The position numbers and the translations under genes are program-made. A stretch of 64,000 nt of DNA, taken from IMG/VR virus record IMGVR_UViG_3300037307_000181, positions 2,523 to 66,522 of that record, one strand, 5' to 3'. The stretch is from a virus. Numbering within the stretch: position 1 is the stretch's first letter; the number at the start of each line of letters is the position of its first letter. The notes beneath the pieces were generated by a model that was not told the DNA's origin, ran no database searches, and saw only the letters and a list, made by a program, of their open reading frames with translations. Positions 62,129 through 62,208 of the stretch are shown here, one piece after another.

Positions 62129-62208
62129 GGGTGTGTAATCGGACTTGTTTCCTAAACAAGTAACCGTAAATGGAATTGAAAATGTGGGTTCAATCCCCAC
62201 CACGCCCT
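62129..62208 (+). tRNA. D-armless tRNA-like RNA, Arg(CCT)
   Basis: GGGTGTG/CACGCCC, short linker, loop TTCCTAA, long variable region, canonical T arm. Confidence 0.7.

Follow-up and report, generated by a model that had tools for sequence, protein, structure and literature searches.

Introduction

To our knowledge, the order of segments in the tRNA cloverleaf is treated as universal outside organelles. In the permuted tRNA genes of Cyanidioschyzon merolae, the 3' half lies before the 5' half and a circular intermediate restores the ordinary cloverleaf. Metazoan mt-tRNA-Ser(AGY) and nematode mt-tRNAs lack the D arm; these mitochondrial molecules are truncated (about 55-65 nt) and flexible, and their contacts between D-loop and T-loop are lost (PMC7609411). 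Allo-tRNAs, which carry 8/4 or 9/3 acceptor/T stems (PMC5389517), and class II tRNAs keep both the cloverleaf order and a normal D arm. No description of a permuted-core tRNA family was found by full-text search of the literature or in a 2020 review of non-canonical tRNAs.

The gene considered here is an 80-nt tRNA-like gene with anticodon CCU (the CCU gene), carried by a tailed phage with genes for terminase, portal, major head protein and ribonucleotide reductase. The source record is a 92,167-bp IMG/VR virus rated complete, of which a stretch of 64,000 nt was analysed (the window). The phage has no close cultured relative, its best terminase match being of 27% identity.

Results and Discussion

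The tRNA array and the anatomy of the gene

A tmRNA and 32 tRNAs were recognized by ARAGORN in the window, with most of the tRNAs packed on the + strand at 56.2-62.8 kb. Consensus sigma-70 promoters occur in the array region at 56317, 57189 and 62456, and no + strand terminator was found inside the array. The CCU gene (62129-62208, + strand) starts 3 nt past tRNA-Cys(GCA) and ends 5 nt before tRNA-Ile(GAU) on the same strand, a spacing that matches the 3-5 nt gaps between ordinary tRNAs nearby. ARAGORN makes no call at 62129-62208, the Rfam tRNA model RF00005 does not match the gene even at E up to 10, and there is no D hairpin at positions 10-25. The parts assigned to the gene, together with the other arginine tRNA genes of this phage, are as follows.

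62129-62135 (+): acceptor stem, 5' strand GGGTGTG, paired with CACGCCC at 62201-62207 (7 bp, one G-U)
62136 (+): equivalent of T8, an invariant alignment column in the family
62137-62139 (+): helix D1 (the 'clamp'), 5' strand AAT, with partner ATT at 62175-62177
62140-62142 (+): helix D2 (the D-stem equivalent), strand CGG, with partner CCG at 62164-62166, from covariation, RNAalifold and the MFE fold
62143 (+): A resembling position 26, which can pair with T62161; the two columns covary moderately
62144-62160 (+): anticodon arm, with stem CTTGT (62144-62148) and ACAAG (62156-62160) and loop TTCCTAA (62149-62155)
62161-62163 (+): 3-nt linker TAA, resembling 44/45, placed by alignment
62164-62166 (+): helix D2, strand CCG, followed by the D-loop-like segment as in canonical 10-12
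62167-62174 (+): D-loop-like segment TAAATGGA, of pattern TA-R-N-N-G-G-A, flanked by the 3' strand of D2 and that of D1
62175-62177 (+): helix D1, 3' strand ATT, paired with AAT at 62137-62139
62178-62183 (+): 6-nt connector GAAAAT, its last base the equivalent of Y48
62184-62200 (+): canonical T arm GTGGG-TTCAATC-CCCAC
62201-62208 (+): acceptor 3' strand CACGCCC and discriminator T62208; CCA is not encoded and the trailer is CTCAT
60701-60776 (+): paralogue with anticodon UCU (AGA), same family, D1 shorter
60469-60540: ordinary tRNA-Arg(UCG) of the same phage
60546-60619: ordinary tRNA-Arg(ACG) of the same phage

The general features of an elongator tRNA are present, namely a 7-bp acceptor stem with discriminator, a T loop of the form TTCRANY, and a 5-bp anticodon stem closing a 7-nt loop with U33 and a purine at 37 (A37). 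The anticodon CCU (62151-62153) corresponds to the codon AGG. Only 8 nt, TAATCGGA (62136-62143), separate the acceptor and anticodon stems, and within this linker the D2 strand CGG runs on into the anticodon stem like canonical 23-25. The anticodon arm is followed by 23 nt, TAACCGTAAATGGAATTGAAAAT (62161-62183), and in the D-loop-like segment the bases at 62168, 62169, 62172-62173 and 62174 are assigned as A14-like, R15-like, G18 G19-like and A20-like, respectively.

A preliminary description, made from the sequence alone, had listed most of these elements, and each of them was located within 62129-62208 (+), including the GG that it took to be relocated 3' of the anticodon arm (62172-62173). 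Its remark that the UCU copy at 60701-60776 shares CGTAA..GGA..GAAAAT and the same architecture also held.

Several other elements of the window deserve mention. The ORF at 38466-39323 (+), just upstream of the phage tmRNA (39665-39967), belongs to the RlaP family (PF10127, RNA-repair-associated nucleotidyltransferase, E 2e-19) and hints at functions in RNA or tRNA repair. Directly after tRNA-Val, a match of about 204 nt to the archaeal RNase P RNA RF00373 (59825-60028, +) has a score of 37.5 bits (E 3e-9), short of the gathering score, which is 84. The alignment covers the full length of the model, most of the specificity domain is deleted, and the GAGGAAA and ACAGAA motifs are retained; the element may represent a minimal RNase P RNA encoded by the phage. 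ARAGORN also passes over a class II tRNA-like gene at 59489-59575 (+), in which the acceptor GGAAGGA/TCCTTCC and a canonical T loop are combined with a long variable arm and the loop CTTGAAA (anticodon UGA, Ser); its sole Rfam match is tRNA-Sec at 30.9 bits. At 62294-62369 (+), called tRNA-Cys(ACA) by ARAGORN, a perfect 5-bp stem CTTCT/AGAAG leads to the loop CCTACAA and hence to anticodon UAC (Val) instead of ACA; in the UAC reading position 33 is C, against the near-universal U. A tRNA-Phe at 61570-61644 (+) whose anticodon, AAA (A34), is unusual adjoins an ordinary tRNA-Phe(GAA) and scores 41.3 bits with Rfam, low for the array. Between tRNA-Phe and tRNA-Tyr, a tRNA-shaped element at 61779-61855 (+) has the non-standard T loop ATCGTGC and a loop GGGAAAC where the anticodon loop would be, and upstream of it is an 8-bp hairpin, GCTATCAC/GTGATAGC (61730-61775, +). 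Small cysteine-rich ORFs with CxxC motifs are interspersed among the tRNA genes at 59241-59487, 60794-60964 and 61965-62033 (+), the last of which uses AGA three times in 22 codons.

A proposed permuted core

The simplest reading of the layout is that the core is permuted and not missing, the unit of D-stem 5' strand and D-loop having apparently been swapped with the unit of D-stem 3' strand, position 26 and anticodon arm. In the cloverleaf, the D-stem 5' strand and D-loop come first and the D-stem 3' strand and anticodon arm second; in the CCU gene these blocks would be exchanged, and the clamp D1 (AAT/ATT) and the connector GAAAAT would link the ends created by the swap to U8 and the T stem. 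Local neighbourhoods are preserved despite the swap, as each D strand still adjoins its D-loop or its position 26 and anticodon stem, and Y48 still adjoins the T stem. The label 'D-armless' used in the preliminary description is therefore wrong, since the parts of the D arm are all present in permuted order; D2 and a D-loop-like segment are there, and the second covarying helix, AAT/ATT, had been missed. Likewise, what had been taken as a 23-nt variable region is a composite of linker, D-stem strand, D-loop, clamp strand and 6-nt connector. Given that the near-universal core residues (U8, A14, R15-Y48, G18 G19 and the T-loop) are kept, an L-shaped fold is probable for the CCU tRNA.

Class I bacterial and phage tRNA-Arg (RF00005) shares with this gene the 7-bp acceptor, the 5-bp anticodon stem, the U33/A37 loop and the T arm, as well as U8, A14, R15/Y48, G18 G19, A20 with C35 and a D-stem pair of the C11-G24 type, and the class I tRNA-Arg genes of this phage are packed into the tRNA operon in the same way. 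The differences are that in the CCU gene the D-stem 5' strand and D-loop come after the anticodon arm, that its family has an extra clamp of 2-3 bp and a 6-nt connector in the place of the variable loop, and that the molecule would form a three-way junction where the cloverleaf is four-way. Like the mitochondrial tRNAs that lack a D arm, the gene has no D hairpin between acceptor and anticodon stems and a short connector of 7-8 nt there; unlike them, it is 80 nt long and has retained an equivalent of the D stem together with the GG loop, the T loop and the 15-48 pair, with D1 and D2 covarying and R15-Y48 covarying perfectly in the family. The C. merolae genes also depart from the cloverleaf in segment order, whereas the acceptor halves of the CCU gene stand in normal order at the gene ends. 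Here D1 and D2 enclose the anticodon arm, so that no circular permutation can restore a cloverleaf, and resolution by circularisation was rejected as topologically impossible. With allo-tRNAs and class II tRNAs the gene has in common a non-standard shape, found in bacteria and phages by metagenome mining, and extra nucleotides between the anticodon and T arms; in contrast to class II tRNAs, these nucleotides form a D-stem strand and D-loop and not a variable arm.

Folding of the single sequence

The single-sequence fold of the gene (-25.6 kcal/mol, z = -3.1 against shuffles) yields the acceptor, the T arm and an anticodon hairpin lengthened by CGG/CCG. D1, which in the CCU gene consists of three A-U pairs, is absent from the thermodynamic fold, and forcing it costs about 3.6 kcal/mol; RNAalifold on the family alignment likewise predicted D2 and did not recover D1. 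An alternative fold with a normal D arm, named in the preliminary description as the outcome that would count against it, did not emerge. Only seven of the 17,169 suboptimal folds within 8 kcal/mol place anything 5' of the anticodon hairpin, and these seven are single-pair artefacts lying at least 6.7 kcal/mol above the optimum. The 23-nt stretch was also considered as a class II variable arm, for which a hairpin CCG-TAAA-TGG in suboptimal folds competes with D2; this was rejected because covariation supports D2 instead.

A family of related genes

The motif CGTAA..GGA..GAAAATGNGGGTTC, common to both copies in the window, is present in 61 viral stretches, against a chance expectation that we estimate at about 1. 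Of the 50 distinct motif copies, 49 combine a 7-bp acceptor stem, perfectly paired and of unrelated sequence, with a 5-bp anticodon stem and a 7-nt loop. A first covariance model built from the motif copies gave family members at least 43.5 bits and ordinary tRNAs at most 37, and it also detected copies outside the motif pattern. A second scan and realignment yielded 127 genes (116 distinct, the window excluded), on which the model R2 is based; the homologues were collected by sequence patterns and model, and the set is biased towards the consensus.

R2 gives the CCU gene 84.9 bits (E 1.4e-22) over model positions 1-80 of 80, with an end-to-end alignment free of indels and 23 of 23 pairs standard. 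The UCU paralogue, which is 65% identical to the CCU gene, receives 70.5 bits, while the best of the ordinary window tRNAs reaches 30. The CCU gene has the whole feature set of the family (AAT/ATT, CGG/CCG, TAAATGGA, GAAAAT and A15/T48), and sequence comparison marks it as a genuine and conserved member of a tRNA family that is specific to phages and has a rewired core.

Members with anticodon CCU nearly always share their locus with another family member, usually UCU, as in this phage; UCU and CCU pairs recur in other phages (loci L019, L008, L042 and L104). In three of these loci (L019:7349-7424, L008:954-1027 and L042:964-1039) the CCU gene is of a short subtype with the connector GAAT, AGAAT or ATAAT and no clear D1 3' strand, and the clamp helix is thus not universal in the family.

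Covariation in the helices and core

Across the family 96.6% of the cells of the whole structure are paired; shuffles give 64%, and sliding the partners gives about 36-47%. Double changes occur in 22 of 24 pairs of the family alignment, and the top 17 column pairs in a blind mutual-information ranking are all proposed pairs. All seven pairs of the acceptor stem covary (98.6% of cells paired), as do all five of the anticodon stem (96.9%). The CGG/CCG helix that had been proposed from the sequence is borne out by D2 pair 13-44 (GC 98, CG 10, AU 5, UA 1), and D2 occurs as CG(R)/(Y)CG, CCG/CGG, CCC/GGG, CAC/GUG, CAG/CUG, CCU/AGG, UG/CA and AC/GU. D1 is paired in 97.5% and covaries: pair 10-60 is GC 36, AU 29 and CG 3, and pair 11-57 is CG 67, UA 15, AU 8, UG 3 and GC 2. 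The latter ranks 13th by mutual information, a ranking from which pair 10-60 was omitted for low column occupancy. Other versions of D1 in the family are AGC/GCT, AAC/GTT, AAA/TTT, AGT/ACT, AGA/TCT and ACA/TGT. The connector is GAAAAT or GAAAAC in 95 of 116 members.

That gene finders do not call the gene might suggest a decaying pseudogene or a chance tRNA-like sequence. The covariation refutes such a reading, as every helix shows compensatory changes across 116 distinct homologues, a paralogue of just 65% identity has the same fold, and CCA is encoded in half of the members; we consider it extremely improbable. The view of the earlier description, that two copies speak for a functional family rather than decay, is thereby upheld, R2 having been built without the window.

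The R15-like purine (62169) and the Y48-like base (62183) form the combinations AU 86 and GC 30 in the family, with no others. A scan permitting all four R/Y combinations gave A/T 53, G/C 26, A/C 0 and G/T 1 among validated genes, and the single G/T case looks like a false positive. Both states, A/U and G/C, are found in Arg-type and in Ile-type members, and the switch has therefore happened several times. By its covariation this pair is taken to behave as the 15-48 (Levitt) pair of ordinary tRNAs. Further core residues kept in the family are U8, A9, a C-G pair mapping to 11-24, the GG and the T loop.

These residues bear on whether the molecule might have the same function and yet truly lack a D arm. 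Anticodon stem, CGG/CCG and AAT/ATT would then stack into one long coaxial anticodon arm, giving a flexible 'boomerang' like the mitochondrial D-armless tRNAs and no canonical core. The three-way junction would suit such a shape, with a 5' strand continuous through D1, D2 and the anticodon stem and a stacked length of about 12 layers, near that of the canonical D-stem and anticodon-stem arm. However, U8, A14, G18 G19, the T-loop and the perfect covariation of R15 with Y48 have no role in a core-less form, and with one nucleotide between the GG and the D1 3' strand, the GG could hardly reach the T loop if D1 stacked at the far end. A core-less molecule is accordingly judged rather unlikely.

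Predicted decoding and charging, and codon need

It is proposed, with a probability of roughly 0.8, that the CCU gene encodes a working elongator tRNA-Arg which reads AGG and whose core segments are swapped in order. Anticodons for arginine predominate among the 116 relatives (UCU 53, UCG 16, ACG 8, CCU 5, GCG 3 and CCG 1), followed by those for isoleucine (UAU 23 and GAU 6), and the remaining one is CUU. All 116 have A37. The base after the GG is A in 84 of 86 Arg-type members versus 1 of 29 Ile-type members, and A73 is present in 29 of 29 Ile-type versus 18 of 86 Arg-type members. ArgRS of the E. coli type recognizes A20, C35 and U or G at 36, and the CCU gene has GGA at 62172-62174 (A20) as well as C35 and U36 in its anticodon.

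CCA is encoded after the discriminator in 57 of the 116 relatives, against 1 in 64 expected by chance. In this phage, 27 canonical tRNAs were checked and CCA is not encoded at the proper position in any of them; most have the same C-T trailer. The usual discriminator of E. coli tRNA-Arg is A or G, and the CCU gene has U73, as does the ordinary tRNA-Arg(UCG) of the phage. Given these parallels among the ordinary tRNAs of the same phage, neither the missing CCA nor U73 is a warning sign.

Over the whole 92-kb phage, 33 ARAGORN tRNAs cover all amino acids and include Arg(UCG) and Arg(ACG), and there is no ordinary UCU or CCU tRNA among them. The codons AGA and AGG are used at 13.4 and 9.3 per 1000 codons and account for 29% and 20% of the arginine codons of the phage, together 49%. 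Going by their anticodons, the two putatively permuted genes (UCU and CCU) fill exactly this AGA/AGG gap of the phage tRNA set.

The CCU gene would be transcribed together with the surrounding tRNA operon and excised by host RNase P and 3' nucleases. A search of the phage for ArgRS or a CCA-adding enzyme found neither, so host enzymes would have to act: a host enzyme would add the CCA, and host ArgRS would charge the tRNA via C35, U36 and the A20 after the GG. The product would supply AGG decoding, missing from an otherwise near-complete phage tRNA set.

Alternatively, the gene product might be a look-alike that does not decode, being processed and perhaps charged and then diverting host nucleases directed at tRNAs, or other tRNA-binding factors, in the manner of a decoy or sponge. 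Hosts are known to have defences that cleave tRNAs, and phage tRNAs are known to counteract such defences (PMC11555353, PMC11464382, PMC12916289); the odd core might also be unfit for the ribosome. A decoy, however, has no need of an intact 7-nt loop with U33 and A37, nor of anticodons restricted to two amino acids with identity elements that switch along with the anticodon, and it has no reason to fill exactly the gap where 49% of the arginine codons fall. We regard a decoy as distinctly improbable and prefer the decoding tRNA-Arg.

Distribution and annotation

Family genes have ordinary tRNAs close by on their own strand, the nearest at a median of 25 nt. ARAGORN calls overlap nine of 129 family genes, and eight of these nine give the wrong anticodon and one the correct one. 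With the CCU gene as query, BLAST over cultured phages found one weak match only, in Maribacter phage Panino; the other members in cultured phages were reached with family consensus queries. In the cultured phages the members are unannotated or lie under 'hypothetical protein'. The members in cultured phages, and one further case, are as follows.

Vibrio phage vB_VpS_PG07: member with anticodon ACG
Microbacterium phage Pumpernickel: member with anticodon UCU
Maribacter phage Panino: member with anticodon UCU
Pseudomonas phage Boevelstad (PQ464592, locus L150): UCU member at 16633-16712 of the record
P. aeruginosa phage HHBS10_2: member with anticodon UCU
P. aeruginosa phage vB_PaeM_Ty: same match as HHBS10_2, by BLAST alone, outside the model scoring
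Uncultured phage of 642 kb: GAU and UCU members side by side

The Boevelstad member stands alone in an intergenic gap with no tRNA array, 46 nt past a small hypothetical gene that itself follows an RNA ligase gene.

A cellular origin of the family was considered and rejected. A pattern scan of prokaryotes (one genome per species, 185,579 species) gave 43 matches, with real members in only seven stretches. Dense phage-like tRNA arrays surround six of the seven, which come for the most part from small MAG contigs and in addition from one Bradyrhizobium contig; the seventh (L110) has no ARAGORN tRNA.

Implications

A wider proposal would make these genes a third structural class of decoding tRNA in phages, beside the cloverleaf and the truncated mitochondrial type, with a rewired L-shaped core, charged by host ArgRS and IleRS and spread among unrelated phages through escape from host nucleases or immune factors that recognize ordinary tRNA-Arg and tRNA-Ile. 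Escape from host tRNA-directed nucleases is an attractive and speculative reason for the rewired core, and the proposal as a whole is tentative and unlikely to hold in every part.

If the genes work, the cloverleaf order would not be needed for bacterial charging and decoding, and the tRNA sets of phages would be systematically under-counted by standard gene finders, which would overlook precisely the tRNAs for the rare codons AGA, AGG, CGN and AUA. In cultured Pseudomonas, Vibrio, Microbacterium and Maribacter phages, some members carry a mistaken protein-coding annotation or lie in DNA recorded as empty and intergenic. Several host-phage pairs being in culture, whether the genes work can be tested directly. 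The natural rewired scaffold could be useful in tRNA engineering.
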